A stretch of DNA of 64,000 nucleotides, taken from Alphaproteobacteria bacterium (GTDB lineage: Bacteria; Pseudomonadota; Alphaproteobacteria; MPNO01; UBA830). The DNA lies in assembly GCA_965214975.1 (NCBI GenBank), contig OZ244055.1:598994-662993 (forward strand), read 5' to 3'. The notes beneath the pieces were generated by a model, which saw only the letters and a list, made by a program, of their open reading frames with translations, made no database searches and was not told where the DNA came from. The translations under genes and the position numbers were made by a program. Of the stretch, positions 5,130 through 53,692 are shown piece by piece; the stretch's first letter is position 1, and each line of letters opens with the position of its first letter.

Positions 5130-5253
5130 GACCGGCCCGTTCTCCCGCGGCCGGGGCGGCGAACTTGCCGATGCCGACGCAAGCTGATAGAGGGATCCGG
5201 CCCGCTCCGCAGCCGGGGCGGCCCCCGGTCCCGCCCGTCCTGCCGGAGCGTCG

Positions 5254-5916: not shown

Positions 5917-7565
5917 GCGCGCGCGCCGGGGGCCGCCGGGCCGCGGGGAGACGGGCGCGCGCGCGCCGCCGGCTGCGAAGCGGCGCGCACGCCGTCGCGA
6001 GGCTGTGGTTCGGGGGGCTGTTCTACCGTCACTCGCTGAAGGGCGCGGTGCCGCGGGCGCTGCCGTTCGTGCCGCGGGAGGAGACGGCCGGAAGCGCCGG
6101 GGAAGGGAGAGCGATCCTCGACGGGCGGGCGCGGTTTCTCGACGCCGCCGCCGCGCCGCGCGTCCGCGGCGCGGCGATGCGGGCGGCGGAGGCGGATCTC
6201 GTCAGGTATCACGGGTTCGACTGGCTGGCCGATCTCGAGGCGGCCGGCGGCGCGGCGGCGCGCGAGCGGGCGGCGGCGCTGATCGCCGCATGGATCGACC
6301 GCAACGCCCGATGGCATCCGGTTTCCTGGCGCCCCGACGTCCTGTCCCGGCGCGTCTGCAACTGGCTCGTGCACGCGACGTTCGCGGCCGGCGGCGGCGG
6401 CGAGGGGTTTCCGCGGCTGTTTCTCGACAGCCTTGCCCGGCAGGTCCGCCATCTCCGCCGCGTGCGGCCGTTCGTCGAGCACGACCTCGGGCGGCTGACG
6501 GCGTCCAAGGCGCTGGTCTACGCGGCGCTCAGCCTGCCCGGCGGCGCGCGCGACGTGCCGGGGCTTCTGCGGCAGCTTCTCGGGAGCTGCTCCGCCCAGC
6601 TTCTTCCCGACGGCGGCCACGTGCGCCGCGACCCGGAAGCGCAGCTCGACGCGCTGCGTCTGCTGGCGGACGTCCGCGACGCCGTCCGGGACGCCGGGCT
6701 GGCCGCGCCCGGCGAGCTTCAGGAGACGATCTCGCGCGTCGCGGCCGTGGCCGGGCTCTTTCGCCACGGCGACGGCGGCCTTGCGGTGTTCGCCGGCTCG
6801 GGCGAGGGCGACCCGGACCGGATCGCGGCGCTTCTCGCGCGCGCCGCCGGCTCCGTGGAGCCGCTGGTGTCCGCGCGGAGCACCGGGTTCGAGCGGGTCG
6901 CGACGCAGCGCGGACTGCTCGTCGTCGACTGCGGACTGCCGCAAGCGCGCGCCGCCGGCACGCTCGCTTTCGAGTTCAGCGTCGGCCCGCAGAGAATCGT
7001 CGTCAACTGCGGCGCCCGGGAGCGCCGCGGCGGCGCCTGGCGGGGGGCGTTCGGCGCCACGGCGGCGCATTCCACTCTCGTCGTCGAGGACACCAACTCC
7101 TCGGTGCTGCGGCCCGACGGATCCCTTGCGCAGGGGCCGGGCCGCGTGACGTGCAGGCGCTCCGAGCGCGACGGGCAGGTCTGGCTCGACACGAGCCACG
7201 ACGGCTACGCCTCGAGGCTTGGCCTCGTCCACCGCCGCCGGTTCCACATGAACAGCGCCGGCACCGAGCTCCGCGGCGAGGACAGCCTGACCGGCAGCGG
7301 CGCGCGCCGGTTCGACATCAGGTTCCATCTGCATCCGACGGTCCGGGCCTCGGCACTCAGGGACGGAACCACGGTTCTGCTCCAGCTTCCGGACCGGGTC
7401 GGATGGCGTCTGCTCTGCCGCGGCGGCACCGCGCGGCTTGAGGAAAGCCTCTACCTGGCGGCGCCCGGGGAGACGCGGCGGTCCGAACAGGTCGTGATTT
7501 CCGGCAGCACGCGCGACGGCGCCGCCGTCGTGAACTGGGCGCTCACCGAACTGTCGCGACGGTAG
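5913..7565 (+). CDS. Heparinase II/III-like family protein (the conserved alphaproteobacterial gene between rpe and purH).
   Basis: The ATG at 5913 overlaps the rpe TGA as ATGA. The 550-aa product ([12 protein letters not shown]...[22 protein letters not shown]...) matches the heparinase II/III-like fold family found at this syntenic position. The 5427 start of the ORF track is rpe antisense-frame junk. Confidence 0.7.
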
Positions 7566-7576
7566 CGTTCCCGCGG

Positions 7577-8866
7577 TCAGATCTGCCAGCGGCGCACGCC
7601 GTTCCCGAGCGTCAGATCCCGCCACATGCCCTTGACGTCGGCGACCAGCCCGTCGGGTTCGACCAGGGCCGCGAGCCCGTCCGCCGACAGGTTCCTGTAG
7701 GCGTCGTGGGCGACGGCGCCGACGACGCAGGCGTGGGGCGCGCCTGCCCCGAGGCAGGGCAGGAGATCGATGCCGAGCAGTTCCCGCGCCTCGCCGGGGT
7801 CGGCGCGGGCGTCGTGCACATCGACCTTGAAGCCGCGCTCGCCGAGCCCGGAGACCAGGCCTGCCACTCCGGTGTTGCGCAGATCGGAGAGGTTCTCCTT
7901 GAACGTCAGGCCGAGCACGAGGATTCGGGAGCCGGCGCCGCGGCCGAGCTTGCCGGCGATGCGCTCCGCGATGCGCTCGCCCATGTTCTCGTTCACGGAC
8001 CGTCCGGCGCGAACGAGCTCCGGCCGGTGCCCGACGCTCTCGGCCGCGTGGACGAGGTAGTAGGGATCGACGCCGATGCAGTGGCCGCCGACGAGGCCGG
8101 GCCGGAAGTCGAGGAAGTTCCACTTGGTCGCGGCGGCGTCGAGGACGTCGTGGGTCGAGATTCCCATCCTGTCGAGGATCGCGGCCATCTCGTTCACGAA
8201 GGCGATGTTGACGTCCCGCTGCACGTTCTCGACGATCTTGGCCGCCTCGGCCGTCCGGATGTCGGCGGCCCGGAAGATCTTCCCCGACGTGACCTTGCCG
8301 TAGATCCGGCACAGCGTGTCGGCGGCCTCGGGGGTCTGCCCCGCGACCACCTTGTCGACCCGCTCCACGCCATGGTCGCGGTCGCCGGGATTGACCCGTT
8401 CCGGGGAGTAGCCGAGAAGGAAGTCGCGGCCGCAGACGAGGCCGGAGGCCCTTTCGAGGAGCGGGCCGCAGAAATCCTCGGTCACGCCGGGGTAGACGGT
8501 GCTCTCGTAGACCACGACCGCGCCTTTTCCGAGCGCCGCGCCCACGGTCAGGCTGGCCGCCTCGACGGCTCCGAGATCGGGCCGCCTGTCGGAGGTGACC
8601 GGCGTCGGGACGGCGACGACGAACACGTCGCTTCCGGAAATCCGCGACGCGTCATCGGCGAACTCCGCGTTCGTCGCCGCGAGGACGTCGGCGTCGACCT
8701 CGCCCGTGCGGTCGCGGCCCTCGCGCAGTTCGGCGATCCGCCTGCGGTCCACGTCGAACCCGACGACTTCGAACGATCGTGCCAGTGCCATCGCCAGCGG
8801 CAGGCCGATGTAGCCCAGACCGACGACCGCGATCCTCGGTTGGTCCGCCACGCGAGTCTTCCCCAA
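7577..8866 (-). CDS. Nucleotide-sugar dehydrogenase (UDP-glucose/GDP-mannose dehydrogenase family, TviB/WbpO-like).
   Basis: N-terminal Rossmann segment [14 protein letters not shown]...VGFDVD; central catalytic [12 protein letters not shown]; C-terminal UDP-binding domain. It is convergent with the heparinase-like gene. Confidence 0.85.
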
Positions 8867-8946
8867 GAGAGGGCTTGTCTTTACTCTGGGGGCACGGACC
8901 CGTCAAACCCGCCCCAGCGGCGGTCCCGCGCTTCGGAGTCAGCGGC

Positions 8947-10500
8947 ATGACCGACCGGAACCGCGCCGTCAGGCGCGCCCTGATCTCCGTGTCCGACAAG
9001 ACCGGGGCGGCGGAGTTCGCGGGCTTTCTCGCGGCGAGGGGGGCGGAGATCCTCTCGACGGGCGGCACCGCCCGGATCCTGCGGGAGGCCGGGATCCATG
9101 TCGTCGACGTGAGCGAGCGCACCGGCTTTCCCGAGATCCTCGACGGCCGCGTCAAGACGCTCCATCCCGCCGTCCACGGCGGCATTCTCGCCCGCCGCGA
9201 CGATGACGCGCATCTCGCGGCGATCGCGGAGCGCGGCATCGCGCCCATCGATCTCGTCGCCGTCGACCTCTACCCCTTCGAGGCGGCCGTCGCCGCGGGG
9301 CGGGGTTTCGCCGACTGCATCGAGAACATCGACGTCGGCGGTCCCGCGCTGATCAGGGCGGCCGCGAAGAACCACGACGGCGTGGCCGTGGTCGTCGACG
9401 TCGAGGACTACGCGGCGGTCGTGGACGAGATCTCCGCCTCCGGCGGCACGGGCCCGGAACTGCGCCGTCGCCTGGCGGCCGTCGCCTACGCGCGGACCGC
9501 CGCCTACGACGCCGCCGTCGCCGACTGGCTCGCCGGGCGCGGGAGCGGCGGATTCCCCCGCCGGCACGTCGTCGCCGGCGCCCGCGTCCGCGAACTGCGC
9601 TACGGCGAGAACCCCCATCAGCGGGCGGCGTTCTACGCCACCGGCGAGGACGGTCCCGCGGTCGCGACGGCGCGGCAGCTTCAGGGCAAGGACCTGTCCT
9701 GGAACAACCTCAACGACGCCGATGCCGCCTTCGCGCTCGCCGCCGAGTTCGACCGGCCCGCGGCCGCGGTCGTCAAGCACGCCAACCCCTGCGGCGCGGC
9801 GATGGGAGACAGCCTCGCCGAAGCCTTCGCGGCGGCGCTGCGCTGCGACCCCGTGAGCGCCTTCGGAGGCATCGTGGCCGTCAACCGCAGGCTCGACGCG
9901 GCCGCCGCCGCCGCGCTGTCGGAGATCTTCCTGGAGGTCGTGGTGGCGCCGGAGATCGACGCGGAGGCCGCGGAAATCCTGTCGGCGAAAAGGAACCTGC
10001 GGGTTCTGGAGACCGGCGGCCTGCCGGATCCGTCGGCTCCGGGCCGCTCGGTCCGGCCGCTCGCGGGAGGGTTTCTCCTGCAGGACCGCGACGCGGCGCG
10101 CGTTTCCCCCGGGGATCTCGAGGTGGTGACCAGGCGCGCGCCGACCGACGCGGAGACGGCCGATCTGCTGTTCGCCTTCGCCGTCGCGAAGCATGTCCGG
10201 TCGAACGCGATCGTCTACGCGCGCGGCGGCGCCACGGTCGGGATCGGCGCCGGCCAGATGAGCCGCGTGGATTCGGCGCGGATCGCCGCATGGAAATTCC
10301 GCGAGACCGGGGCCGGCGCCCCGGTGGTCGCGTCCGACGCGTTCTTCCCCTTCGCCGACGGCCTTGTCGAGGCCGCCGCCGCCGGCGCCAGCGCCGTGAT
10401 CCAGCCCGGGGGGTCGGTTCGCGATCGGGAGGTCGTGGCCGCCGCCGACGAGCGCGGCCTGGCCATGGTGTTCACGGGGGTCCGGCACTTCCGGCACTGA
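8947..10500 (+). CDS. purH: Bifunctional AICAR transformylase / IMP cyclohydrolase.
   Basis: [20 protein letters not shown]...[13 protein letters not shown]...[11 protein letters not shown] is a canonical PurH sequence. I used the ATG at 8947; the 56 codons upstream in ORF 8779 are junk. Confidence 0.9.
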
Positions 10501-10505
10501 GCCCC

Positions 10506-11837
10506 TCAGGCCGGCGCGCGGACCTTCCAGAGCAGAAGCGCGAGGCCGGCCCCGAGAAACGCGAAGATCGTCGCCATGCCGAGGCGCTGCGAGGCCGCGA
10601 GCGCGGTGACCGTGGCGAGGACGAACGGCCCGACATAGGCGGTGGCGCGGCCCGAGAACGCCAGCAGCCCGAACATCTCGGTCCTGCATTCCGCAGGCGC
10701 GAGATGGGCCATCAGCGAACGGCTCGCCGACTGCGCGGGCCCGACGAACAGGCCGAGGGGCACGGCGAAGGCGAGGAACCACGCCATCGATTCGGAGAGC
10801 AGCGCGGGAACGCCGAGCGCGATGAGGCCGGCGAGCGCGAGCGCGATGGCGGTCTTTGGGCCGAGGCGGTCGTCGAGCCAGGCGAAGCCGGCGGCGCCAA
10901 GGCCCGCGGTGACGTTGAGGGCGATCCCGAACAGCAGGATGTCGAGCGTCGACATGCCGAAGGTCTGGCCGGCGTAGACGCCGCCGAAGGCGAAAAGCGT
11001 GTTCATCCCGTCGACGTAGAGCATGCGCGCGCCGAGGAACCAGGCGATGTCGCGGTGCTCGCGGATGCCCCGGACGGTGGAGACCAGCGTCGCGATCCCG
11101 TCGCGCGCCGTCCGCCACCAGCCGAGAGCGCGGGCCCTGCCGTCCGGCACGAAAAGGAACAGCGGCAGGCAGAACAGCGCGAACCAGGCCGCGACGAACG
11201 GCCCCATGGCGCGCTCCGGCTCGAGGCTCTCCCGCGCGAGACCGAGAAGGGGCGCGTCGGGGAGGATCGCCGCGAGCGGCGTCGCGGAGAGGAATTCCGC
11301 AGCGGGCGTCGCGGGCAGGATGAAGCCGAACAGCAGCGCGGTGAGCGCGCACAGTCCGCCGGCGTAGCCGAGGCCCCAGCCCCACCCCGACAGGCGGCCG
11401 TAGCGGTCGCTCGAGGCGATTTCGGGGAGGATCGAGTTGTAGAAGGCCTGGCCCAGCTCGAAGGCCACGTTGGCCACGACGAACAGCGCCAGCACCGCGA
11501 GCGCCGCGGACGGGTCGGGATAGGCGAACCACAGGAACGCGGAGCAGACGACGGTCGCCGCCGTGAAGGCCGCGAGCCACGGCTTGCGGCGTCCGCCGCG
11601 GTCGGCGATCGACCCGCAGACCGGGGCGAGGACCGCGACCAGGACGCCCGAGACCGCCACCGCGTAGCCCCATTGCGCGGTGCCGGAGATGCTGTCGCCG
11701 ACGACGTGCTGCACGAAATAGTGCGGGAACGCGAACGTCACGACGACGGCCGGGAAGGCGGAGTTCGCCCAGTCGAAAAGACACCAGGAGACGCGGGCCG
11801 CGCGCGACCCCCGCTCGGGCGCGGCGAGGTCCGCCAC
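10506..11837 (-). CDS. MFS transporter (UMF1/Atg22-like family).
   Basis: The C-terminal 443 aa of ORF 10506..13511 read WCLFDWANSAF...; I counted about 12 hydrophobic helices. The GTG start at 11837 sits 2-5 nt after the coxL-like stop, so it is the last gene of the cox-like operon. The upstream part of the ORF is the antisense frame of coxL. Confidence 0.7.
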   Translation of the reverse strand: MADLAAPERGSRAARVSWCLFDWANSAFPAVVVTFAFPHYFVQHVVGDSISGTAQWGYAVAVSGVLVAVLAPVCGSIADRGGRRKPWLAAFTAATVVCSAFLWFAYPDPSAALAVLALFVVANVAFELGQAFYNSILPEIASSDRYGRLSGWGWGLGYAGGLCALTALLFGFILPATPAAEFLSATPLAAILPDAPLLGLARESLEPERAMGPFVAAWFALFCLPLFLFVPDGRARALGWWRTARDGIATLVSTVRGIREHRDIAWFLGARMLYVDGMNTLFAFGGVYAGQTFGMSTLDILLFGIALNVTAGLGAAGFAWLDDRLGPKTAIALALAGLIALGVPALLSESMAWFLAFAVPLGLFVGPAQSASRSLMAHLAPAECRTEMFGLLAFSGRATAYVGPFVLATVTALAASQRLGMATIFAFLGAGLALLLWKVRAPA

Positions 11838-11839
11838 CG

Positions 11840-14215
11840 CTACGCTTCCGCGGCGTCGCGCTCGGCCACCAGCCGGAAGATGCGTTCGGGCGTGGCCGGA
11901 AGCGTCGTGATCTCGAGGCCAAGCGCGTCGGACACCGCGTTCGCGACGCAGGCGGGCGCGCCGATGGTGCCGCCCTCGCCGAGGCCGCGGAAGCCGCCGA
12001 GCGTGTCCGGCAGTTCGGCCTCGACGTGGAAGACCCCGATCTCGGGAACCTCGGACGCCGACGGCACGACGTAGTCGACCAGACTCGCGGTCAGAAGCTG
12101 GCCGTCCTCGTCGTGCACCACCTCTTCCAGGAGCGCGACCCCGATGCCCTGGGCGACGCCGCCATGCGCCTGCCCGTCGGCGATCAGCGGGTTGATGATC
12201 CGGCCGCAGTCCTCGGCGACCACGTAGCGCCGGACCGCGACCTGGTAGGTCTCGGGATCCATCTCGATCAGGCACATGTGCGTCGCCGACGTGGTGGTGC
12301 CCAGAAACGGGTCGTAGACGCGGGTGGCCTCCAGGTTGTCGATCTCGTCGCGCAGTTCCTTGGGCACGCGCCCCATGTCGGAATAGAGCGCGCGGGCGAG
12401 ATCCCGGATGCGCATCGACCGGTCGGTGCCCTTGACCCAGACGTCGCCGTCCCCGGTCTCGAGATCCTCCTCCCCGGCCTCCAGAAGATGGCTGGCGACG
12501 CGGAGGATCTTCTCGCGCACCGTCTGCGCGGCGAGCGTTCCGGCGCCCGCGCCGAACACCGCCGCGCGGCTCGCGTAGGTGCCGGTGGTGTGGCTGACCG
12601 CGGCGGTGTCGCCGAGCACGACGTCGACGTCCTCGACCCGCACGCCGAGAGTCTCGGCAACGACCTGGGCGAGCGTGGTCTCGACGCCCTGGCCCTGGCT
12701 CGTGAGCCCGAAGCTCGCCGTGACCGCGCCGGTGGAATCGACGGCCACGGTCGCGGTTTCCGTTCCGGTGTTGATCGGCATGCCGGGAGCGACCGCGATG
12801 CGCGAGCCGACGCCGGTGAGCTCGGCGTAGCAGGCGACGCCGATTCCCGCCCATCTGCCTTCGGCGCGGGCGGCGTCGCGTTCCCGGACCAGCGCGTCGT
12901 AGCCGATCTCGTCCGCGGCCCGCTGCAGGCAGGCCTGGAAGGCCGCCTTGTCCCACACCAGGCCCGACGCCGCCTTGTAGGGAAACTTCTCGACGAGATT
13001 GCGGCGCCGCATCTCGACCGGATCGAGGCCGAGCCTGCGCGCCGCCATGTCCGTCAGCCGTTCCATCACGAACGCGGAGATCGGCCGTCCGACGCCGCGG
13101 TAGGCGGCGCCGAGGGTCTTGTTGGTGGCGACCGAGCGGACCCGCGCCGCGTAGTTGGCGATCCGGTACGGCCCCGGAAGGAAGCTCACCACCTGGACCG
13201 GTTCCATGGAGGCCGTCCAGGGGTAGATCGAGTAGGCGCCGACGTCGCCGACGACGTCGGCCCTGAGGCCCAGGATCCCGCCGTCCGCGGAGACCGCGAG
13301 CTCGGCGTCCACGATCTCGTCGAAGGCATGGCCCGTCGTCATCAGGTCTTCCATGCGGTCGCTGACCCACTTGACCGGACGGCCGAGGTCGCGGGAGGCG
13401 GCGCAGACGACGATCTCTTCCGAATAGAGGGAGGTCTTGGCGCCGAAGCCGCCGCCGACGTCGGGGGCGACGACCCGGACGCGCGGTCCGGGAAGGTCGA
13501 ACAGCTCGCACAGCTTGTCGCGGACGATCCCGGGAATCTGCGTCGTGCTGTGGAGCGTCAGCGTGCGCGTTCCGGGCTCGTGCTCCGCCACGGCGGCGCG
13601 CGCCTCCACGGTCATCGGGGTCGTCCGCGTGAAACGGAACCTCGCCCCGACCACGGCATGGGCGGACGCGAAGGCCTCCTCGACCTCGCCGCGGGCGAAG
13701 GCGCGTTCGGCGAGCACGTTGGACTCGAGATCGTCGTGGAGCCTGGGGGCGCCTTCCTCCGCCGACCGTTCGGGGTCGACGAGCGCCGGCAGGGGCGCGA
13801 GGTCGACCGCGATCCGGGCCGCGGCGTCTTCCGCGAGATAGCGGCTCTCGGCGACGACGGCGGCAACCGCCTCGCCGACGTAGCGGACCTTGCCGACGGC
13901 GACCGGGGGGATGAAGGTCGCCTGGTAGTTCTTCATCCGCGACGTCGCCCGGTACGGCCGGACGAGGCGGCCGATGTCCTCGCCCGCGTAGACCGCGACC
14001 ACGCCCGGGGAGGCGGCGGCCTCCGCCACGTCCACGCCGCGGATCCGGGCATGGGCCCGGTCGCTCCGCCGGAAGGCGACGTGCAGCATGCCGTGGCGCT
14101 TGATGTCGGCGACGTAGCTGCCGGCCCCGGCGAGAAGCCGGGGATCCTCCTTGCGGGTCACCCGCGCCCCGACGAACCGCGGCCGGACGAGGGCGGCGCC
14201 GTCGGACGGCGTCAT
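11840..14215 (-). CDS. Molybdopterin-binding large subunit of a xanthine dehydrogenase / aerobic CO-dehydrogenase family hydroxylase (CoxL-like, AYRGVGR-type).
   Basis: MTPSDGAALVRPRFVGARVTRKEDPRLL...GGGFGAK...AAYRGVGRP... is a full-length 791-aa aldehyde oxidase / XDH a/b hammerhead plus MoCo domain. Its ATG overlaps the coxS-like stop (ATGA). Confidence 0.85.
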   Translation of the reverse strand: MTPSDGAALVRPRFVGARVTRKEDPRLLAGAGSYVADIKRHGMLHVAFRRSDRAHARIRGVDVAEAAASPGVVAVYAGEDIGRLVRPYRATSRMKNYQATFIPPVAVGKVRYVGEAVAAVVAESRYLAEDAAARIAVDLAPLPALVDPERSAEEGAPRLHDDLESNVLAERAFARGEVEEAFASAHAVVGARFRFTRTTPMTVEARAAVAEHEPGTRTLTLHSTTQIPGIVRDKLCELFDLPGPRVRVVAPDVGGGFGAKTSLYSEEIVVCAASRDLGRPVKWVSDRMEDLMTTGHAFDEIVDAELAVSADGGILGLRADVVGDVGAYSIYPWTASMEPVQVVSFLPGPYRIANYAARVRSVATNKTLGAAYRGVGRPISAFVMERLTDMAARRLGLDPVEMRRRNLVEKFPYKAASGLVWDKAAFQACLQRAADEIGYDALVRERDAARAEGRWAGIGVACYAELTGVGSRIAVAPGMPINTGTETATVAVDSTGAVTASFGLTSQGQGVETTLAQVVAETLGVRVEDVDVVLGDTAAVSHTTGTYASRAAVFGAGAGTLAAQTVREKILRVASHLLEAGEEDLETGDGDVWVKGTDRSMRIRDLARALYSDMGRVPKELRDEIDNLEATRVYDPFLGTTTSATHMCLIEMDPETYQVAVRRYVVAEDCGRIINPLIADGQAHGGVAQGIGVALLEEVVHDEDGQLLTASLVDYVVPSASEVPEIGVFHVEAELPDTLGGFRGLGEGGTIGAPACVANAVSDALGLEITTLPATPERIFRLVAERDAAEA

Positions 14216-14691
14216 TTCCGTTCCCTCCGGCCGACGACCTCGCGGACGGCGCGGACGATGTGCCCGTAGCCGGTGCAGCGGCAGATGTTTCCCGAGATGC
14301 CGTCGCGGATCTCGTCGTCGGTGGCGAGCGGGTACTTGCGGAGCAGGTCGGTGACGGTCATCAGCATGCCCGGCGTGCAGAATCCGCATTGCAGCGCGTG
14401 GTGGGCGCGGAACGCCTCCTGCAGCTCGCCGAGCGAATCGACGCTTCCCAGGCTCTCGACGGTCTCGACCTCGGCGCCGTCGGCCTGCACGGCAAGCGTC
14501 AGGCAGGAGCGCACGCTGTCGCCGTTCATCAGGACGGTGCAGGCGCCGCAGACCCCGTGCTCGCAGCCGACATGGGTTCCCGTGAGATCGAGATTCTCGC
14601 GGAGGAAATCCGCCAGCAGCAGGCGCGGCTCGACCTCGGCGGCATGGCGCGCGCCGTTGACGGTGACCGCGACGGGCATCCTCGCGGTCAC
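14212..14691 (-). CDS. (2Fe-2S)-binding small subunit of the molybdenum hydroxylase (CoxS-like).
   Basis: GCEHGVCGACTVLMNG...CGFCTPGM...CRCTGY carries both 2Fe-2S motifs; the product is 159 aa. Confidence 0.9.
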   Translation of the reverse strand: MTARMPVAVTVNGARHAAEVEPRLLLADFLRENLDLTGTHVGCEHGVCGACTVLMNGDSVRSCLTLAVQADGAEVETVESLGSVDSLGELQEAFRAHHALQCGFCTPGMLMTVTDLLRKYPLATDDEIRDGISGNICRCTGYGHIVRAVREVVGRRERK

Positions 14692-15560
14692 GGCGCCGTC
14701 TCCCCGCGGGCCCGCTCGACGGCCGCCCCGAGGGCGCGGCGCGCCAGAACCTCCGCGAGATGGCGCCGGTAGTCGGCCGAGCCGTGAAGGTCGTCCATGG
14801 GTTCCGCGGCGTCCCGCGCGGCGGCGGCGGCGGCGGCGACCGCGTCCGGCTCCGGCGGGTTGCCGGCGAGGAGTCTCTCGGCCTCCGCCGCCCTGAGCGG
14901 CGTGCCGTGGACGCCGAGCAGCGCGAGCCGGGCCATCGACACCGAGCCGCCGTCGAGCGCGACCAGGGCCGCCGCGCCCGCGACCGCGAAGTCGCCCCGC
15001 CGCCGCGCGACCTCCTCGAAGCCCCAGCCGGTGCCCGGCGGCAGGCCCGGCAAGGTCACCGACACCGCCATCTCGTCGTCGCCGAGCGCGTTCGCCAGAG
15101 GGCCGGCGAAGAACCCGCCGGCCTCGAGCGCGCGTCCGCCCGAGGGGCTCGCGGTCTCGATCACGGCGTCGAGGAGAACCGACATGGCCGGCAGTTCGGC
15201 CGCGGGGTCGGCGTGGCAGAGACTGCCGCCGAAGGTGCCCCGGTTGCGGACGGCGAGATGGGCGACGTGGCGCATCGCGGCGGCGACCACCGGAAACCGC
15301 TCGCGGACCGCGTCCGACGTCTCGACCCGGTGATGGCGGGCGAGCGCGCCGATGCGCAGCCCGCCGCCCTCCTCGGCGATGCCGTCGAGCCCCTCGATGC
15401 CGTTGACGTCGACGAAGGTCGCCGCGTCGACGAGACGGAAGTTGAGCATCGGGACCAGGCTCTGGCCGCCGGCCAGGATCCGGGCGCCGCCCCCGGCAAG
15501 GGCGTCCACCGCGTCGCCGACCGTGGCGGCGCGGACGTAGTCGAACGGGGCGGGCTTCAT
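14688..15560 (-). CDS. FAD-binding medium subunit of the molybdenum hydroxylase (CoxM-like).
   Basis: MKPAPFDYVRAATVGDAVDAL...LAGGQSLVPMLNFRL...AVRNRGTFGGSLCHADPAAELPA is the FAD-binding PCMH domain. I chose the internal ATG at 15560, which has a spacing typical of operon genes. Confidence 0.8.
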   Translation of the reverse strand: MKPAPFDYVRAATVGDAVDALAGGGARILAGGQSLVPMLNFRLVDAATFVDVNGIEGLDGIAEEGGGLRIGALARHHRVETSDAVRERFPVVAAAMRHVAHLAVRNRGTFGGSLCHADPAAELPAMSVLLDAVIETASPSGGRALEAGGFFAGPLANALGDDEMAVSVTLPGLPPGTGWGFEEVARRRGDFAVAGAAALVALDGGSVSMARLALLGVHGTPLRAAEAERLLAGNPPEPDAVAAAAAAARDAAEPMDDLHGSADYRRHLAEVLARRALGAAVERARGETAP

Positions 15561-15573
15561 CGGAGGCGGAACG

Positions 15574-16506
15574 TCAGCCGCGCTGGATGCCGTCGTAGAG
15601 CAGCGCCTCGCCCATGCCTTCGGCAAGGCACCATTCGGCGAAGTTCTCCGGAGTCGTTTCCCAGCTCGCCGCCTCCCACTCGTCGTCGACCACGTCGGAA
15701 TCGAAGTCGTACTCCGCGCCGCCGCCGCAGGGGTTGTGGAAGTACCAGAAGTAGCACGACGAGATCGGGTGGCGGCCCGGCCCGAGCATGGTCTTCCAGC
15801 CCTGCCGGGTCATGCGGTTGCCGCCGCCGAACAGCTCGTGGATCGTGCCGAGCTCGAACGCCGCGTGGTGGAAGCCGCGCTTGCCGGAGCCGGGGTCGAG
15901 CAGGAAGAGGTTGTGGTGGTGGTGCGCGGCGCCGCACCGCGCGAAATACCCCCTTCCGGGATACATGTCCGTGACCTTGAAGCCGAGCCGGTCGACGTAG
16001 AACTCCTTCTGGGCCTCGAGCTCGTCGGTCACGTAGACGACATGGGAGATCTCAAGGGGCCGCGCCCTGTCGATTCTGCGGGCCCGCCTGTTCACGCGCG
16101 TCGCCCGGCCGGGCACGTTGATTTCCTGCTCGGGCGGCGCCACCGGGCGGTTCCGGGTGACGCGGAAGCCGAGGCCGAAGCCGAGCGGGTCGGCGGCGTG
16201 GAGGCCGCCCTCGCCGTCCCGGCGCACCTCGCGGTCCGCGGAAAGCGCCTCTTCCAGCGCGTCGAGGTCGCTTTCGGAGCGCACGCCGAACACGGTCTCG
16301 CGGAGCGTGGCGCCGGCGTCCTCGCCCACCGGCGGCGGGAGCGCGGGGTCGTCCGCCGGGCGCAGCTCGACCACGGCGCCGTTGGCGGCGGCGTAGGAGG
16401 GGAGGCCGCCTTCCGCGCGCTCGAGGCCGAAATCCTCCCAGAACCTCGCCCCCTCCGCAGGGTCGCGCACCCCGTAGACCAGCTTGTCGATTCCGGTGTG
16501 GTTCAT
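15574..16506 (-). CDS. Two-domain VOC-family extradiol ring-cleavage dioxygenase (catechol 2,3-dioxygenase-like).
   Basis: The 310-aa product has two glyoxalase/VOC modules; YFARCGAAHHHHNLFLL resembles the extradiol dioxygenase active-site segment. It is the first gene of the operon with coxMSL-like and the MFS gene. Confidence 0.7.
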   Translation of the reverse strand: MNHTGIDKLVYGVRDPAEGARFWEDFGLERAEGGLPSYAAANGAVVELRPADDPALPPPVGEDAGATLRETVFGVRSESDLDALEEALSADREVRRDGEGGLHAADPLGFGLGFRVTRNRPVAPPEQEINVPGRATRVNRRARRIDRARPLEISHVVYVTDELEAQKEFYVDRLGFKVTDMYPGRGYFARCGAAHHHHNLFLLDPGSGKRGFHHAAFELGTIHELFGGGNRMTRQGWKTMLGPGRHPISSCYFWYFHNPCGGGAEYDFDSDVVDDEWEAASWETTPENFAEWCLAEGMGEALLYDGIQRG

Positions 16507-16583
16507 GCCGGTTCCTCCTCTTCCGCCCCGGGCGCCAACCTACCGCGTCGGCGCCCGGGATCCAACGGCCGGCGGGCCGGAGG

Positions 16584-18092
16584 TCACCACAGCGCGGCGA
16601 TGCCGGCGGCGACGGCGGCGGCGCCCGCGATCCACCATGCGCCGCCGCGCCCGGCACGGCGTTCCTCCGGCCCTGCCGGCGGGGTGCGGGCGGGGGTCCG
16701 GCCGGCGTCGCCGGCCGCCGCGCGCTCGAGCCGGGCCGGGAAGCGCTCGAGAGCGTCGAGGAGGCCGTCGACGGTCTCGCGCATGCGCGCCTCCGGCGCG
16801 GTCGCGGAGCGCATCCACGAATCGACGAGCGGCCGCGCGAGCTCCCACATGTTGACCCCCGGGCACAGGCTCCGCCCGACCCCCTCGGCCACGAGCATCG
16901 TCTTCTGCAGGAGCAGGAGCTGGGGCTGGGTCTGCATGTCGAACCGGCGCGTGACGGCGAACAGCTGGCTGAGCAGGCGGGCGAGCGAGATCTCCCCGAG
17001 CGGCAGGCCGAGGATCGGCTCGGCGATCGCCCGCGCGGCCTGCGCGAACTCGGCCGTCGAATGGTGCGCCGGCACGTAGCCGGCGCGCAGGTGGACCCGT
17101 GCGACGCGGTCGTAGTCTCCCGAGAGGAATCCGTGCAGCATCTCGGCGAGATACCGTCGCGTGGACGGGTCGAGCCGGCCCATGATCCCGAAATCCACCG
17201 CATGGACCGTGCCGTCGCCGTCGACGAACAGGTTGCCGGGATGCAGGTCGGCGTGGAAGAAGCCGTCGCGGAACACCTGCAGGAAGAACGTCTGGGCGAG
17301 GCCGGCGACGATCGCCTCGCGGTCGGCGTCCTCGCCGAGCCGGTCGATCGGCGCGGCGTCGATCCAGCGCATGGTGAGCACCCTCCGCCCCGTGCGCTGC
17401 CAGTCGATCGCCGGGACAGAGAAACGCGGCTCGTCGGCGAGGTTGGCCCGAAGCTCGTCGGCCGCGGCCCCCTCGAGGCGGAGGTCGGTCTCCATCTCGA
17501 CCGACCGGGCGATGGTGCGCACGCACTCCACGGGACGCAGGCGACGGGACGCGGGAAGATGGCGCTCGACCAGGCGGGCGAACCAGAGGGCGAGATCGAT
17601 GTCGCGCGCGAACGCCTCCTCGATCCCGGGTCGGAGGATCTTGACCGCGACGTCGGTTCCGTCCGCGGCCGTCGCGCGGTGGACCTGCGCGATCGACGCC
17701 GCCGCGACGGCCTCGTCCCCGAATTCCGCGAACAGCTCTCCGGCCGGCCGGCCGAACTCCCTCTCGATGACGGCGCGCGCCCCGGCGCCCGGGAAGGACG
17801 GCATCTCGTCCTGCAGCGCCGCGAGATCGTCGGCGATGCGCTCGCCCACGAGGTCCGGACGGACCGACAGCGCCTGGCCGATCTTCACGAAACCCGGGCC
17901 GAGCGCCGTCAGGGCCATGCCCAGCCGTTCGCCCGGGCGTCTTCCGGCGACGCCGCGGACGGGCGGAGCGAGCAGCGCCCATGCCGCCGCGCGCAGGAGC
18001 GCGCCCGGCGCGCCGAGCCGCTCGAGCGCGAACGCGGCGTCGTGCCGGGCCAGGGCGCGGAAGACCGCGACCGTCCGCATCAGCTGTCTCAT
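16584..18092 (-). CDS. ubiB: Ubiquinone biosynthesis protein kinase UbiB (AarF/ABC1 family).
   Basis: ASIAQVHRA...VAVKILRPG...HADLHPGNLFV is ABC1 kinase-like; 502 aa, immediately downstream of ubiE. Confidence 0.9.
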   Translation of the reverse strand: MRQLMRTVAVFRALARHDAAFALERLGAPGALLRAAAWALLAPPVRGVAGRRPGERLGMALTALGPGFVKIGQALSVRPDLVGERIADDLAALQDEMPSFPGAGARAVIEREFGRPAGELFAEFGDEAVAAASIAQVHRATAADGTDVAVKILRPGIEEAFARDIDLALWFARLVERHLPASRRLRPVECVRTIARSVEMETDLRLEGAAADELRANLADEPRFSVPAIDWQRTGRRVLTMRWIDAAPIDRLGEDADREAIVAGLAQTFFLQVFRDGFFHADLHPGNLFVDGDGTVHAVDFGIMGRLDPSTRRYLAEMLHGFLSGDYDRVARVHLRAGYVPAHHSTAEFAQAARAIAEPILGLPLGEISLARLLSQLFAVTRRFDMQTQPQLLLLQKTMLVAEGVGRSLCPGVNMWELARPLVDSWMRSATAPEARMRETVDGLLDALERFPARLERAAAGDAGRTPARTPPAGPEERRAGRGGAWWIAGAAAVAAGIAALW

Positions 18093-18141: not shown

Positions 18142-18882
18142 CTAGGTCACGCGCCATGCGGAGTGGATGCGGACGATGCCGCCCGAAAGCGGCATGTGGG
18201 TGACGTTGCCGAACCCGGCGTCGCGGAGATCGGCGGCCAGACGCTCCGGTCCCGGAAACGCGCGGACGCTTTCCGCGAGATAGCGGTAGGCGTCGCGGTC
18301 GCCGGCGACGAGGCCGCCGAGTCTCGGCAGCGCGCCGAAGCTGTAGGCGTCGTAGAGCGGCTTGAGAAGCGGCAGCACGGAAGGGCTGAACTCGAGGCAG
18401 AGGAAGTGTCCGCCGACGACCAGGACGCGCCGCGTCTCCGAGAGCGCGTCCGTCCGTCCGGCCACGTTGCGCAGCCCGAAGGAGATGGTGCAGACGTCGG
18501 CGCAGCGGTCGCCGAGCGGCAGGGCCCGCGCGTCGCCGCAGACCCGCGGCGGGCCGTGGAGAACGCCCCGGTCGAGGCGGCGGTCGGCGCCTGTCCGGAG
18601 CATGCGCTCGTTGACGTCGCACAGCACGGCCTCGCCGCCGCGGGCCATGAACGCCGAGGCGACGTCGCCGGTTCCGCCCGCGACGTCGATCAGCCGCCTG
18701 CCGGCGCGGGGGTCGGCGCGGTCGACGAGCACCGACTTCCAGAACCGGTGGAGACCTCCCGACATCAGGTCGTTCATGAGGTCGTAGCGGTCCGCCACGC
18801 TGTCGAACACGCGCCCGACGAGGCCGGCATGCTCCGCCCGGGACACCTCGCGGAATCCGAAACGCGCGCGATCTTCCTCCAT
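18142..18882 (-). CDS. ubiE: Ubiquinone/menaquinone biosynthesis C-methyltransferase UbiE.
   Basis: MEEDRARFGFREV...VFDSVADRYDLMNDLMSGGLHRFWK...LIDVAGGTGD is a UbiE signature. I used the ATG at 18882; the ORF-track N-terminal extension is junk. Confidence 0.85.
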   Translation of the reverse strand: MEEDRARFGFREVSRAEHAGLVGRVFDSVADRYDLMNDLMSGGLHRFWKSVLVDRADPRAGRRLIDVAGGTGDVASAFMARGGEAVLCDVNERMLRTGADRRLDRGVLHGPPRVCGDARALPLGDRCADVCTISFGLRNVAGRTDALSETRRVLVVGGHFLCLEFSPSVLPLLKPLYDAYSFGALPRLGGLVAGDRDAYRYLAESVRAFPGPERLAADLRDAGFGNVTHMPLSGGIVRIHSAWRVT

Positions 18883-19157
18883 GCCGGCGAGGATAGCGCG
18901 GGAGGCGTTCTGCGGCCAGCCCGGAGTTCCCGCGCGGCCGGCGCGCGCGGGAATCCGGAAACCGTCATGTTCCGTGGAATCAACAGGCTGCGGAACGCGG
19001 GGCGGAACGCCTTCCGGCCGCGGCCCGCCGCCGGCGGCGTTCGCGGGAGGCGGCGACCGGCCCGCCAGGCCGGCCTCCGGCCGCATCCGGCCCGAAAACC
19101 TGCTACTCTCCCGCCGGTCGGACGAGCGAACGCGGGACAGGCCGGCGGGGTTGGCGC

Positions 19158-22030: not shown

Positions 22031-22290
22031 TTCCGCCGGGCGGCGGGACGGGGGTCGCCGGAGCCCGGAGCGTCAGGGCGACCGCCGGGCCGCCGCAGCC
22101 GGCGCGGGGCTCGCGGATCCGGGCGCCGCGGGCGGAGTCGGGTTCGACCGCGACAGCTCCGGGACGGCGAGGCGGCCTCGGCAACGCTGCCGCAGAGGGC
22201 GCCGACACCCGGGCGACACCTCCCGTCGATATTCTCTTCCGCGCCGCCCCGCTCACCTGCCCTCGAAAGGATTGAGCAGCTTGACTCATC
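20568..22290. repeat. Direct repeat copy 1 (~1.72 kb), near-identical to 24570-26285.
   Basis: Direct comparison of the two stretches: only a handful of substitutions (giving A/T, V/I, E/G, G/D, K/R protein differences) and one 1-nt indel near 22262. Copy 1 ends at ...gcagcttgac, immediately followed by the AT-richer IS left end. Confidence 0.9.
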
Positions 22291-49947: not shown

Positions 49948-52323
49948 TCAGATCCTGCCGAGCGCCTCGAGCACGATCTCGGGGGTCATCGGCTGTTCGG
50001 TGACCCGCCCCTTCGCGATCGGGCGGATGGCGTCGTTCACGGCGTTCATGACCACGCCCGGGGCGGCGCCGGTTCCGGATTCCCCGGCGCCCTTGGCGCC
50101 GAGTTCGGATTCGCTGGTCGGCGTCTCGACATGGGCGACGCCGATGTCGGGCATCTCTCCGGCCATCGGCGTGATGTAGTCGGCCATGGTGCCGTTGGTC
50201 AGCTGGCCGTGCGCGTCGTAGACGCAGCGCTCGTAGAGCGCTCCGCCGAGACCCTGGACCGTGCCGCCGCGCACTTGCTCGTCGGCGAGCTGCGGGTTGA
50301 TGATGCGTCCGCAGTCCTCGACCACCCAATGCGCGAGGTGGCGGATCCATCCGGTGTCCGCGTCCACCTCGACCCAGGCGCCGTGGATGCCGTTGGTGAA
50401 GATGTAGGGCAGATCCCGCAGCCGGTAGCGCCGGGTGTGGGACAGGACCGGCTGGTAGTCGTCGGGCAGTTCCCCGAGCTGGAAGTGGCCGATTCTCCCG
50501 ATTTCGTCGAGGGGGATCCGCGGCGTTCCCGAACCGGCGGCGACGACGTCTCCGTCGACGATGTCGAGGGTGTCCGGGGCGGCCTGCAGCAGATGTCCGG
50601 CCATTTCCAGGATCTCCCCGCGCAGGTCGAGCGCGGCCTGGTAGGCGGCCTCGCCGCCGATCGCGGTGGCCCGGGAGGCGTAGGTTCCGCCGCCGTAGGG
50701 CACGGCGTCGGTGTCGCCGGAGATCGCCCGCACCCGTTCCGCGGGAACGCCGATCGCCGCTGCGGCGATCTGCTCCATGACCGTGTCCACGCCCTGTCCC
50801 TGGTCGGTCACGCCGAGATGCACGAGAACGCCACCCGAGGGCTCGAGCTTGACGGTGGCGGCGTCCTGGGCCGCGATGCGGGCGCCGCCCGCGCCGTAGT
50901 AGCCGACGGGGCTTGGCGCCGTGCCCTTGATGAAGCCCGCGATCCCGATGCCGCGCCAGATTCCCCGTTCGCGCAGCGCCGCCTGCTCCGCCCGGAGCTC
51001 GTCGTATTTCATCAGCTCGAGGAGCTTCTCGAGGCACGCCTGGTGGGACAGATCCTTCATCGTGATGCCGGCGCCGATCTCGCGCGGGTAGGAATCGTCC
51101 TCCATCACGTTGCGGCGCCGGACCTCCGCGGGATCCAGGCCCGTCGCTTCGGCCGCCAGATCCATCATCGCCTCCCCGACCGAGATCCCGATCGGGTGTC
51201 CGACCGCGCGGTACTGCGACGTCGGCACGGCGTTGAGATAGGCCACCCGCGCCCTGGCCCGGTAGTTCGGGTGCTTGTAGGGGCCGAAGGTGACGTTGAG
51301 AATCTGGTTGGCCTCGAAAACGCTGGTCCGCGGGTACTGGGAATAGGCGCCGATGCCGGCCAGCACGTCGATCTCCGCCGCCGTCATCGTGCCGTCGTTC
51401 ATGACCGCGATCCGGGCCCGGACGCGGTTCTCCCGGGCGTGGATGTCCGAGACGAACGATTCCAGGCGGTCGGCGACGAACTTGACCGGACGCCCGAGCC
51501 TGACAGCGGCCGCGGCCGCGGCCACCTCGTCGCCGAAGGTGTGGATCTTGAGGCCGAAGGAGCCGCCGACATCGGGCGCGACGACCCGGACGTTGTGCTC
51601 GTCGATCCCCAGGGTCCGCGCGAAGACGGTCTGCATCATGTGCGGGCACTGGCTCGAGGCATGAAGCGTCAGCCGCCCGGTTCCCGGGTCGTGCTCGGCG
51701 ACGAGCGTGCGGGGTTCCAGGCTGACCGCGGTGTGCCTTCCGAACCGGAACGTCTCCTCGATCACGTGGTCGGCGCCGCGGAACGCGGCGTCGACGTCGC
51801 CCGAGCCGGTCTCCTTCTCCCAGGCCAGGTTGTCGCCGAGCTCGGGGTGGATGGGCGCGTCGCCGAGCGCCGTTTCCTTGTCGATGACGACAGGGAGCTC
51901 CTCGTAGGCGATCTCGACCAGCTCGGCGGCGTCCTCGGCCTCGGCGCGCGTGTCGGCGACGACCATGACCACCGGTTCGCCGTGCCAGCAGGCGCGGTCC
52001 ACGGCCATCGGGTGCTGGGGCGCCGCCTTCATCCCCGGAAACACCGTCAGCGTGCCGATCCAGGGGCCGGTGCACGTTTCCGCGAGCTCGCGGCCGGTCA
52101 CGACCAGCTTGACGCCGTGCGCCGACCTCGCCCTTCCGGTGTCGATCGAGAGGATGCGGGCGTGGGCGTGGGGGCTGCGCACGAAGGCCGCATGCAGCGC
52201 GCGGGGCGGGGCGATGTCGTCCGCGTAGCGCGCGCGGCCGGCGACGGCGCGCCGGGCCCGGGCGCGGGAAAGGCTGCGGCCGATGTAGGAGTTGGGCCGT
52301 TCGTAGGGGTGGACGGCGGTCAT
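49948..52323 (-). CDS. Molybdopterin-binding large subunit of a second CoxL-like molybdenum hydroxylase (AYRAVG-type).
   Basis: MTAVHPYERPNSYIGRSLSRARARRAVAGRARYADDIAPP...GGSFGLK...QYRAVGHP..., 791 aa. The ATG overlaps the coxS-like stop (ATGA). It is a paralogue of 11840..14215. Confidence 0.85.
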   Translation of the reverse strand: MTAVHPYERPNSYIGRSLSRARARRAVAGRARYADDIAPPRALHAAFVRSPHAHARILSIDTGRARSAHGVKLVVTGRELAETCTGPWIGTLTVFPGMKAAPQHPMAVDRACWHGEPVVMVVADTRAEAEDAAELVEIAYEELPVVIDKETALGDAPIHPELGDNLAWEKETGSGDVDAAFRGADHVIEETFRFGRHTAVSLEPRTLVAEHDPGTGRLTLHASSQCPHMMQTVFARTLGIDEHNVRVVAPDVGGSFGLKIHTFGDEVAAAAAAVRLGRPVKFVADRLESFVSDIHARENRVRARIAVMNDGTMTAAEIDVLAGIGAYSQYPRTSVFEANQILNVTFGPYKHPNYRARARVAYLNAVPTSQYRAVGHPIGISVGEAMMDLAAEATGLDPAEVRRRNVMEDDSYPREIGAGITMKDLSHQACLEKLLELMKYDELRAEQAALRERGIWRGIGIAGFIKGTAPSPVGYYGAGGARIAAQDAATVKLEPSGGVLVHLGVTDQGQGVDTVMEQIAAAAIGVPAERVRAISGDTDAVPYGGGTYASRATAIGGEAAYQAALDLRGEILEMAGHLLQAAPDTLDIVDGDVVAAGSGTPRIPLDEIGRIGHFQLGELPDDYQPVLSHTRRYRLRDLPYIFTNGIHGAWVEVDADTGWIRHLAHWVVEDCGRIINPQLADEQVRGGTVQGLGGALYERCVYDAHGQLTNGTMADYITPMAGEMPDIGVAHVETPTSESELGAKGAGESGTGAAPGVVMNAVNDAIRPIAKGRVTEQPMTPEIVLEALGRI

Positions 52324-52823
52324 CGCGCGCTCCGTTCGCCGCCCGCGGCGCGGCGCGCGGCGCCGACGGTTTCGATGGCGTCGACGATCGCGTGGTAGCC
52401 GGTGCACCGGCAGTAGTTGCCGGACATGAACTCGCGGATGTCCTCGCGGCTTCGCTGCCGGTTCCCGGCCAGCAGTTCCGCCGCGGTCATCAGCATCCCG
52501 GGCGTGCAGTATCCGCACTGCAGCGCGTTCCGCTCCACGAACGCGTCCTGCAGGTCCGCGATCTCCCCGGACTCGCTCAGCCCCTCGATCGTCGTGATCT
52601 CGGAGCCGTCGCACTGCACCGCCAGCATCAGGCAGCCCCTGACCACGGCGCCGTCGACGCGCAGCGAGCAGGCGCCGCACACCCCGTGTTCGCAGCCGAG
52701 ATGCGAACCGGTCAGCCCGAGTTCGGAGCGCAGGAAATCCACCAGGTGCCGGCGCACGGGAACGCTCCGGGTCACCGGCTCGCCGTTGACCGTCATCGAG
52801 ACCGTCGCCGTCTCCTCGTTCAT
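52320..52823 (-). CDS. (2Fe-2S)-binding small subunit (CoxS-like), second copy.
   Basis: GCEHGVCGACSLRVDG...CGYCTPGM...CRCTGY, 167 aa. ATG at 52823. Confidence 0.9.
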   Translation of the reverse strand: MNEETATVSMTVNGEPVTRSVPVRRHLVDFLRSELGLTGSHLGCEHGVCGACSLRVDGAVVRGCLMLAVQCDGSEITTIEGLSESGEIADLQDAFVERNALQCGYCTPGMLMTAAELLAGNRQRSREDIREFMSGNYCRCTGYHAIVDAIETVGAARRAAGGERSAR

Positions 52824-53692
52824 GCCTTGCCCCCGGCGCGGGCGACGGCGGCGTCCAGGGCGCGCCCGCTCAGCACTTTCTGGAGATGCATCTTCATCGC
52901 CGGGCTTCCGGCCAGATTGTCCATCGGATCGAGGTCGTCCTCGAGCGCGGTCTCGACGGCCCGTCTCGTCTCGTCCGACCATTCGCGCCCCGCCAGCGCC
53001 GCCGCGGCGCGGACGCCGACGACCGGCCGGTCCTCGCTCGCGAAATAGACCAGCCGCATCTCGTTGACCGTCCGTCCCGAGAGGCTGCCGCAGGCCGCGA
53101 CCCCCGCGACGGCGAAGTCCCCCCTTCGCCGCGCGAGTTCCATGAAGACCGAGACGTTCTCCGCCCTCTGCGCCGGAAGGCGGACCTCGACGAGGAGCTC
53201 GTCGTCGCGGCGGGCGGTCTCGTAGAGGCCCAGGAAATAGTCGTCGGCCGCGACCTCGCGCGTCCCAGAGACGCTGCGCAGCACGATCGTGCCGCCGAGC
53301 GCGAGAACGCAGGCCGGCAGTTCCGCGGCCGGGTCGGCGAGCGCGACGCTGCCGCCGAAGGTTCCCCGGTTGCGCACCGCGACATGGGCGACGTGCGGCA
53401 TCGCCTCGGCGACCAGCGGCAGGCGTTCGGCGACGATTCCGGATCCCATGACCTCGGCGTGGCGGGCCAGCGCGCCGATGCGCACGGTGTCGCCGTCGAC
53501 GGAGATGCCCCCGAGCTCGTCGAGGCGGTTGATGTCGACGAGAAGCCTGGGCCTCGAGAGGCGCATGTTGAGCGTCGGCATGAGACTCTGGCCGCCCGCG
53601 AGGACGCGGGCGTCGTCCCCGTGCTCTTCGAGGAGACCGAGGGCGTGGGGCACGCTCTCGGCACGCACGTATCCGAACTTCGGCGCCTTCAC
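52820..53692 (-). CDS. FAD-binding medium subunit (CoxM-like), second copy.
   Basis: MKAPKFGYVRAESVPHALGLLEEHGDDARVLAGGQSLMPTLNMRL...AVRNRGTFGGS, 290 aa. Its stop overlaps the coxS-like start. Confidence 0.8.
   Translation of the reverse strand: MKAPKFGYVRAESVPHALGLLEEHGDDARVLAGGQSLMPTLNMRLSRPRLLVDINRLDELGGISVDGDTVRIGALARHAEVMGSGIVAERLPLVAEAMPHVAHVAVRNRGTFGGSVALADPAAELPACVLALGGTIVLRSVSGTREVAADDYFLGLYETARRDDELLVEVRLPAQRAENVSVFMELARRRGDFAVAGVAACGSLSGRTVNEMRLVYFASEDRPVVGVRAAAALAGREWSDETRRAVETALEDDLDPMDNLAGSPAMKMHLQKVLSGRALDAAVARAGGKA

Follow-up and report, generated by a model that had tools for sequence, protein, structure and literature searches.

The 64,000-nucleotide stretch of alphaproteobacterial DNA analysed here (part of contig OZ244055.1, hereafter the window) carries five closely spaced genes on its minus strand between positions 10506 and 16506, read directly from the sequence: one for a predicted ring-cleavage dioxygenase of the VOC superfamily, three for the medium (M), small (S) and large (L) subunits of a molybdenum hydroxylase, and one for an MFS transporter. 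A preliminary description of this DNA had reported five co-directional, tightly packed genes, and this is borne out, the run extending exactly from the first start codon to the last stop codon. GC content is 65-76% throughout the window and, since high GC fills a raw list of open reading frames (ORFs) with shadow ORFs, genes were called with a codon-position GC filter; the five genes have a GC3 of 0.90-0.93 and a GC2 of 0.47-0.58 in local DNA of 72-74% GC. The five genes, and a hairpin upstream of them, are as follows.

16506..15574, minus strand: VOC-superfamily protein of two domains, predicted type I extradiol dioxygenase, 310 aa (Pfam Glyoxalase/VOC, 1.9e-17)
15560..14688, minus strand: M, FAD-binding medium subunit, CoxM/QorM-like, 290 aa (FAD_binding_5, 1.6e-41; CO_deh_flav_C, 1.1e-25)
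14691..14212, minus strand: S, small subunit with two [2Fe-2S], CoxS/QorS-like, 159 aa (Fer2 and Fer2_2, 1.8e-29)
14215..11840, minus strand: L, molybdopterin-binding large subunit, 791 aa (Ald_Xan_dh_C; MoCoBD_1, 9e-72; MoCoBD_2, 9e-78)
11837..10506, minus strand: MFS transporter of the Atg22/UMF1 type, 443 aa (ATG22, PF11700, 1.1e-32; MFS_1)
16526..16560, minus strand: GC-rich hairpin, stem of 14 bp, within the 77 nt that separate ubiB from the VOC gene (predicted RNA fold -50.9 kcal/mol over 91 nt, z-score -2.64 against shuffles)

The VOC gene, with an ATG start and GGAGGA just 5' of it, is the first of the four genes VOC-M-S-L that are here called the cassette; its stop is followed after 13 nt by the start of M, the M/S junction is a GTGA overlap and the S/L junction an ATGA overlap. 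The MFS gene begins with GTG and has no other in-frame start 5' of the conserved WCLFDWANS; the gap that separates it from the L stop is 2 nt, so that both the ATGA overlap and the short L-MFS gap of the preliminary description stand. On its other side the MFS gene is met by a convergent purH, the two stop codons being 5 nt apart. The same-strand run in fact exceeds five genes, as ubiE (19086..18142) and ubiB (18092..16584) stand upstream. The hairpin between ubiB and the VOC gene has no T-run and may be a ubiB terminator or a boundary of the cassette transcript; no Rfam family, a molybdenum cofactor (Moco) riboswitch and the hairpin included, was matched between positions 10000 and 19500 at E<=1, and scans for consensus promoters and terminators gave no usable signal in DNA of 73% GC.

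M, S and L are the subunits of a three-subunit (CoxMSL/QorMSL-type) molybdenum hydroxylase of the xanthine-dehydrogenase family. The large subunit has the active-site loop AYRGVGR at residues 371-377 (context AAYRGVGRP), as had been noticed earlier, and this loop is without Cys; Q226, a GGGFG at 254 and the catalytic Glu E747 are conserved, and the domains PF01315 (hammerhead), PF02738 and PF20256 match at 5e-23 to 9e-78. The small subunit has eight Cys, at 43, 48, 51, 63, 102, 105, 137 and 139, as for two [2Fe-2S] clusters, and the medium subunit has an AGGQSL motif at residue 30. Enzymes of the 4-hydroxybenzoyl-CoA-reductase type have a Cys-rich [4Fe-4S] insertion in their FAD subunit; M, at 290 aa, has a single Cys and hence no such insertion, and that type was therefore rejected.

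None of the three subunits reaches an equivalog cut-off among the curated NCBIfam models. The top model for all three is that of archaeal glyceraldehyde dehydrogenase (alpha, beta and gamma at 614, 246 and 211 bits, all below cut-off, which for alpha is 790). For L the further scores are those of group 5 carbon monoxide (CO) dehydrogenase (NF040766, 597 bits, cut-off 950), form I CoxL (TIGR02416, 518.7 bits, cut-off 991), XdhA, XdhB and PucD (417, 244 and 290 bits; cut-offs 780, 850 and 784) and the alpha subunit of 4-hydroxybenzoyl-CoA reductase (390 bits, cut-off 995); TIGR03194 and TIGR03195, the models for the 4-hydroxybenzoyl-CoA-reductase type, lie far below their cut-offs. Amongst solved structures the best relative of L is QorL (1t3q_B), at 573 bits and 41.6% identity over 783 columns, that is over the full length, ahead of Mycobacterium smegmatis CoxL (483 bits), KdhL (427), Oligotropha carboxidovorans CoxL (413), an archaeal aldehyde oxidoreductase (4zoh, 349), HcrA (277) and xanthine dehydrogenase (XDH, 156). 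A neighbour-joining tree, built from three solved structures and uncharacterised relatives, sets L apart from M. smegmatis CoxL and gives it no specific grouping with QorL.

L is thus an orphan hydroxylase and not a bona fide CO or xanthine dehydrogenase, as the preliminary description had it; firm clustering with either, which it had named as the result that would speak against it, is not seen in the tree. Form I CO dehydrogenase was rejected on the loop without Cys, the TIGR02416 score and the tree position, and xanthine dehydrogenase on the XdhA score and the weak match (~156 bits) to XDH structures. The same description had called L 'form II-like', and this label is a poor fit. The order here is M-S-L, and the form II order is, reportedly after King and Weber in 2007, coxS-L-M; the loop reads as in Qor (AYRGVGF). 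The published loops are (A/S)YRCS(F/L)R with its Cu-site Cys for form I and AYRGAGR for form II (PMC13240472), so that in L a Val replaces the second Ala of the latter, and a form II 'CO dehydrogenase-like' enzyme was rejected as well. Homologues of L run into the thousands, and they are routinely tagged 'carbon-monoxide dehydrogenase large subunit' (CoxL) by public pipelines.

Qor itself (QorMSL of Pseudomonas putida 86, PDB 1T3Q) shares with the cassette its three-subunit M-S-L architecture, the loop residues AYRGVG, the conserved Gln, the GGGFG and the catalytic Glu; however, its identity to L is only ~42% and the tree gives no specific grouping of the pair. In the quinoline pathway Qor is followed by a Rieske-type 8-monooxygenase and not by an adjacent VOC dioxygenase; there is no Rieske oxygenase among the scanned ORFs of the window. 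The form I and form II CO dehydrogenases (CoxMSL/CoxSLM) belong to the same family and have the same set of subunits as M-S-L, but differ in loops and scores.

The VOC protein is predicted to be a type I extradiol ring-cleavage dioxygenase of a small, separate subfamily. In an alignment of 23 homologues (56-81% identity) H155, H198, H213, H246, Y255 and E265 are invariant; by position H155, H213 and E265 are the metal ligands (2-His-1-carboxylate) and H198, H246 and Y255 the catalytic set, with spacings of 15, 9 and 10 residues that match those of BphC. An AlphaFold (AF2) model of the protein (pLDDT 83, pTM 0.86) is matched by Foldseek to BphC, LapB, HPCD and HsaC at a probability of 1.00 and TM 0.64-0.72. 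The top solved relative is 3b59, an uncharacterised Mn(II)-bound 'glyoxalase' of Novosphingobium aromaticivorans. Fold, 2-His-1-carboxylate and second-sphere His/His/Tyr are shared with 3B59 and with the type I extradiol dioxygenases BphC, XylE/LapB and homoprotocatechuate 2,3-dioxygenase, yet identity to any solved member is 17-24% and the models for catechol 2,3-dioxygenase, homoprotocatechuate 2,3-dioxygenase (HpaD) and 2,3-dihydroxybiphenyl 1,2-dioxygenase (BphC) give 48.9, 57.5 and 28 bits, far below their cut-offs of 320, 321 and 366, and these named equivalogs were all rejected. The subfamily has 105 representatives at E<=1e-30 among 1.84 billion cluster representatives.

A role in the ring cleavage of aromatic catabolism is supported by the neighbours of more distant VOC relatives. 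At 52 loci with VOC homologues of 50-63% identity there are nearby genes for LigB (30), LigA (24), a LigC-like dehydrogenase (19), a LigI-like amidohydrolase (20) and an aldehyde dehydrogenase (15), and a relative of 46% identity lies in a cluster with Rieske/VanA, hydrolase, IclR and reductase genes. The loci L036-L087, from metagenome-assembled genomes of Gammaproteobacteria and Terriglobia, often read modB-modC-VOC-ligA-ligB and are without M-S-L (for example L090, 8181-12288), the VOC gene of Gammaproteobacteria frequently coming right after modB-modC; xdhC lies a few kb upstream (14-16 of the 52 loci), so that a tie of the VOC subfamily to molybdenum genes remains even where no molybdenum enzyme is encoded within 10 kb.

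The association of the VOC gene with M-S-L is conserved. When one genome of each GTDB species was scanned with the VOC alignment, 133 relatives were obtained, and the window proteins were mapped on the best 80 loci. M-S-L lies directly 3' of the VOC gene in 18 of these 80, which is to say at every locus with a VOC identity of at least 66%; at one further locus the sequence ends 69 nt past the VOC gene. At loci with a VOC identity of 63% or less (58 among the best 80 of the 133) M-S-L is missing from all 58. VOC-M-S-L is thus contiguous in 18 loci of GTDB species representatives and in the ENA loci L001-L004, L004 being the same contig as one of the 18; overall it is found at 20 or more loci across at least three unrelated genomic neighbourhoods. 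Loci carrying L at 76-87% identity again have this order, and the VOC-linked L subunits form a single clade in the neighbour-joining tree. The carriers are all metagenome-assembled Alphaproteobacteria (Rhodospirillaceae-like, UBA830 and similar); OZ251539, OZ219791 and OZ244893 are complete assemblies among them. A search of the literature found no description of a VOC-M-S-L cassette. Because the four genes are contiguous at every cassette locus examined, a functional tie of hydroxylase and dioxygenase is very likely, and the pairing with an extradiol-type dioxygenase proposed in the preliminary description is real.

What surrounds the cassette varies. In the window and in L001, L008 and L021 (L 87% identical) it consists of four genes only, set between ubiE-ubiB and housekeeping genes, and the remaining genes of the window are housekeeping genes; in a clade at 73-79% identity it is set within a catabolic island. 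Over 20 cassette loci the neighbours include genes for CobW (14), a luciferase-like monooxygenase (11), a metallo-beta-lactamase-fold protein (10), UbiD (9), a Zn-dependent alcohol dehydrogenase (ADH; 8), HpaB (6) and an amidase (6); the flanks, catabolic in most cassette genomes, also have genes for an amidohydrolase and a CoA ligase. As the accessory neighbours vary and the window keeps VOC-M-S-L alone, the unit under selection is the four genes.

A CobW/COG0523 metallochaperone gene stands directly upstream of the VOC gene at 14 of 20 cassette loci, among them L002, L010, L011, L013-L016, L018-L020 and L023-L025, and not in the window. The CobW/COG0523 protein may load the dioxygenase with its metal.

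The transporter, which had been put forward as an operon partner, is another matter. The MFS protein matches PF11700 with 113.8 bits (cut-off 24.1) over residues 45-437, and this MFS gene is beside the cassette at none of the 19 others. Scanning metagenomes with the MFS protein gave 80 loci (45-56% identity). Of these, 62 extend for at least 1 kb downstream of the MFS homologue, and 26 of the 62 have a convergent purH just 3' of it; 47 extend for at least 3 kb upstream, and none of the 47 has M, S or L. The sister genomes L008 and L021 read VOC-M-S-L-rsmB-rpe-heparinase II/III-purH, followed by an MFS orthologue (78% identity) that is convergent on purH, ~6 kb from L and in the opposite orientation. 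In the window and in the near-identical strain L176, L is followed by MFS, after which the other strand carries purH, heparinase, rpe and rsmB; the block rsmB-rpe-heparinase II/III-(UDP-glucose dehydrogenase)-purH/MFS, at 3849-11837 of the window, is inverted relative to the three closest relatives. The block is intact in the unrelated alphaproteobacterial contigs L119, L142 and L143 and can therefore be seen as an old housekeeping neighbourhood, and the C-terminus of L departs from that of its sisters exactly at the junction (...RLVAERDAAEA in the window, ...RLVEEAR in the sisters). From gene order it would appear that an inversion of the rsmB..MFS block put MFS behind L, and that the adjacency is lineage-specific whichever orientation is ancestral. 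On the same comparison the MFS gene is judged to be a resident of the rsmB-rpe-purH neighbourhood and not a conserved member of the cassette. Even a spacing of 2 nt can stem from a recent inversion and does not imply a conserved functional operon.

The reading that we favour, though tentatively and with some way to go before it could be called probable, is that 11840-16506 constitutes a self-contained, horizontally mobile four-gene catabolic cassette which hydroxylates a (hetero)aromatic compound and then opens it by meta-cleavage, MFS having been brought to it by inversion. The molybdenum enzyme would introduce a water-derived hydroxyl at an electron-poor carbon of an aromatic or N-heteroaromatic compound that already carries oxygen, electrons passing from Mo (in L) through the two [2Fe-2S] clusters (in S) and FAD (in M) to an acceptor. 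The Fe(II)/Mn(II) VOC dioxygenase would then use O2 to open the vicinal diol so formed (or its lactam tautomer), and the ring-opened product would be handled by enzymes encoded elsewhere. Which step comes first and what kind of compound is attacked are both inferred. Hydroxylation before cleavage is favoured because the best characterised relative, Qor, hydroxylates N-heteroaromatics, because molybdenum hydroxylases attack electron-poor carbons adjacent to a ring N or O, and because amidases, such as ring-opened N-heterocycles would need, and amidohydrolases lie near the cassette in many genomes. A more specific version is doubtful: that the cassette is a portable 'hydroxylate with water, cleave with O2' module with a new extradiol subfamily, by which uncultured, mostly marine Rhodospirillaceae-like Alphaproteobacteria open a natural N-heteroaromatic or pyrone-type compound for which there is no known route.

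A number of observations weigh against hydroxylation followed by cleavage in a self-contained cassette. The 64-kb window has no homologue of the CobW, luciferase-like monooxygenase, UbiD, metallo-beta-lactamase-fold, HpaB or amidase genes found beside other cassettes, nor of their amidohydrolase, ADH, GST, cupin or CMD neighbours, and xdhC, coxD/E/F/G and a cytidylyltransferase gene are absent from its scanned ORFs. All relatives of the cassette are from metagenome-assembled genomes. Of the 19 other cassette loci at least 9 have CoA-ligase genes (of two types) within 6 kb, and the nearest L clades (57-64% identity) are accompanied by CoA ligase and enoyl-CoA hydratase; these observations hint at a thioester substrate. 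The top NCBIfam model for L, at 614 bits, is that of an aldehyde-oxidising enzyme. A gene order with the dioxygenase first carries no information on the order of the reactions. Finally, given the 2-nt spacing, MFS is probably co-transcribed with the cassette.

The reverse order of reactions, in which the VOC protein cleaves a catechol-type substrate and the molybdenum enzyme oxidises the muconate-semialdehyde-type product to an acid in place of XylG/LigC-type NAD-dependent dehydrogenases, would seem unlikely. Aldehydes are classical substrates of the molybdenum-hydroxylase family, the three glyceraldehyde dehydrogenase models are the top curated ones, the VOC gene heads the cassette, and the LigC-like and aldehyde dehydrogenase genes that lie near VOC homologues without M-S-L are not found at cassette loci. 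However, all three models are below cut-off, QorL outscores the solved archaeal aldehyde oxidoreductase 4zoh by a wide margin (573 against 349 bits), and the LigC and aldehyde dehydrogenase genes of the non-cassette loci are accounted for by the LigAB pathway adjoining them; moreover, we know of no precedent for a molybdenum enzyme that oxidises a ring-fission semialdehyde. By analogy with 2-furoyl-CoA dehydrogenase (HmfABC) the enzyme might instead hydroxylate a (hetero)aroyl-CoA thioester, with a CoA ligase encoded elsewhere in the genome and the VOC protein acting on a later, de-esterified intermediate. This is distinctly improbable, even though the sister clades of L (L006 at 64%, plasmids of Agrobacterium and Aminobacter at 57-58%) all have CoA ligase and enoyl-CoA hydratase and even though, besides the CoA ligases within 6 kb, a metallo-beta-lactamase-fold gene is present at 10 of 20 cassette loci. 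The window has no homologue of the CoA ligase, the hydratase or the metallo-beta-lactamase-fold protein near the cassette, its sole AMP-binding gene being ~16 kb away and at 26-29% identity; the clade at 87% identity retains four genes only; and the single Cys of M excludes the 4-hydroxybenzoyl-CoA-reductase type.

That all five genes form a dedicated operon, with MFS importing the substrate or exporting the product, is very unlikely. The 2 nt between L and MFS, the lack of a terminator between them and the same junction in the near-identical strain would fit such an operon, but MFS is missing from all 19 other cassette loci, purH is its convergent partner in 26 of 62 loci, none of 47 MFS loci has M, S or L upstream, the L008 and L021 orthologues lie past purH on the opposite strand, and the rsmB-rpe-heparinase-purH/MFS block is conserved in unrelated contigs. 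Least credible of all is that the enzyme is an aerobic CO dehydrogenase of the form II type or else a xanthine dehydrogenase: the automatic label of the homologues and the equal three-subunit architecture point that way, yet the loop has neither the Cu-site Cys nor the sequence AYRGAGR, the scores against TIGR02416 (519 against 991), CO dehydrogenase group 5 and XdhA are all far short of their cut-offs, the scanned ORFs of the window lack coxD/E/F/G and xdhC, and the tree separates L from M. smegmatis CoxL.

The closest relatives of L outside the cassette clade (57-64% identity, with a YRGVGRP loop) belong to orphan M-S-L clusters linked to CoA ligase, on plasmids of Agrobacterium, Sinorhizobium and Aminobacter and in L006. 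Unlike the cassette these have no VOC gene, and carry CoA ligase, enoyl-CoA hydratase, short-chain dehydrogenase (SDR) and CoxG genes; on the Agrobacterium, Sinorhizobium and Aminobacter plasmids (57-58%) S and L are separated by an inserted metallo-beta-lactamase-fold gene. The nearest named relatives, from cultured Rhizobiales and at 57-58% identity, are L172 (Agrobacterium tumefaciens plasmid NZ_CP139999, 8917-14400) and L173 (Aminobacter plasmid pANY103b), where the order is coxG-enoyl-CoA hydratase-M-S-(metallo-beta-lactamase 'AHL lactonase')-L-SDR-CoA ligase-Fe-ADH-thioesterase-succinate-semialdehyde dehydrogenase. Such a cluster would suit a CoA-dependent pathway, as yet uncharacterised, that acts on a lactone or a heterocycle.

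By analogy only, a precedent for the joint use of a molybdenum hydroxylase and an extradiol dioxygenase on an N-heterocycle is provided by the lumichrome/riboflavin pathway of Nocardioides simplex, with its xanthine-oxidase-like quinoxaline oxidase LumJ and extradiol dioxygenase LumE (PMC12746152). Amidases and a LigI-like pyrone hydrolase also take part in this pathway; it differs from the cassette in having a Rieske dioxygenase step between these two enzymes and a cluster of ~25 genes (PMC12746152).

In marine and soil metagenomes few genes are mis-annotated as often as orphan CoxL-like ones, which are routinely called 'CO dehydrogenase', and a firm link to a partner narrows their function. 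One CoxL-like clade fixed to an extradiol dioxygenase in ~20 uncultured alphaproteobacterial species provides a two-protein target for expression and substrate screening. The cassette is nevertheless an uncharacterised member of well-known enzyme families, so far seen only in uncultured Alphaproteobacteria, and its significance is modest.

A second complete M-S-L operon is present on the minus strand of the window at 49948-53692 (M2 53692..52820, S2 52823..52320, L2 52323..49948), with 4-nt overlaps at all of its junctions. L2 shares only 38% identity with L and has QYRAVGH as its loop; its grouping is with an orphan L encoded on the Dinoroseobacter shibae plasmid pDSHI05; a divergent ORF of 317 aa without a Pfam match (53758-54711) adjoins this operon.

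The window also contains a direct duplication of ~1.7 kb (20565-22260 and 24567-26262, 98-100% identity, offset 4002 nt). It covers most of a gene for a thiamine-diphosphate (TPP) enzyme at 20393-22030, the second copy of which, at 24575-26032, encodes a protein 98.6% identical; a link of this gene to a TPP enzyme encoded beside a distant VOC homologue was rejected, identity being only 28%. Two ORFs lie in the 2.3 kb that separates the copies, and the one that was scanned has no Pfam match. The duplication may reflect an insertion that duplicated its target, or else an artefact of assembly, and GC falls to ~0.68 from 22 kb to 30 kb.

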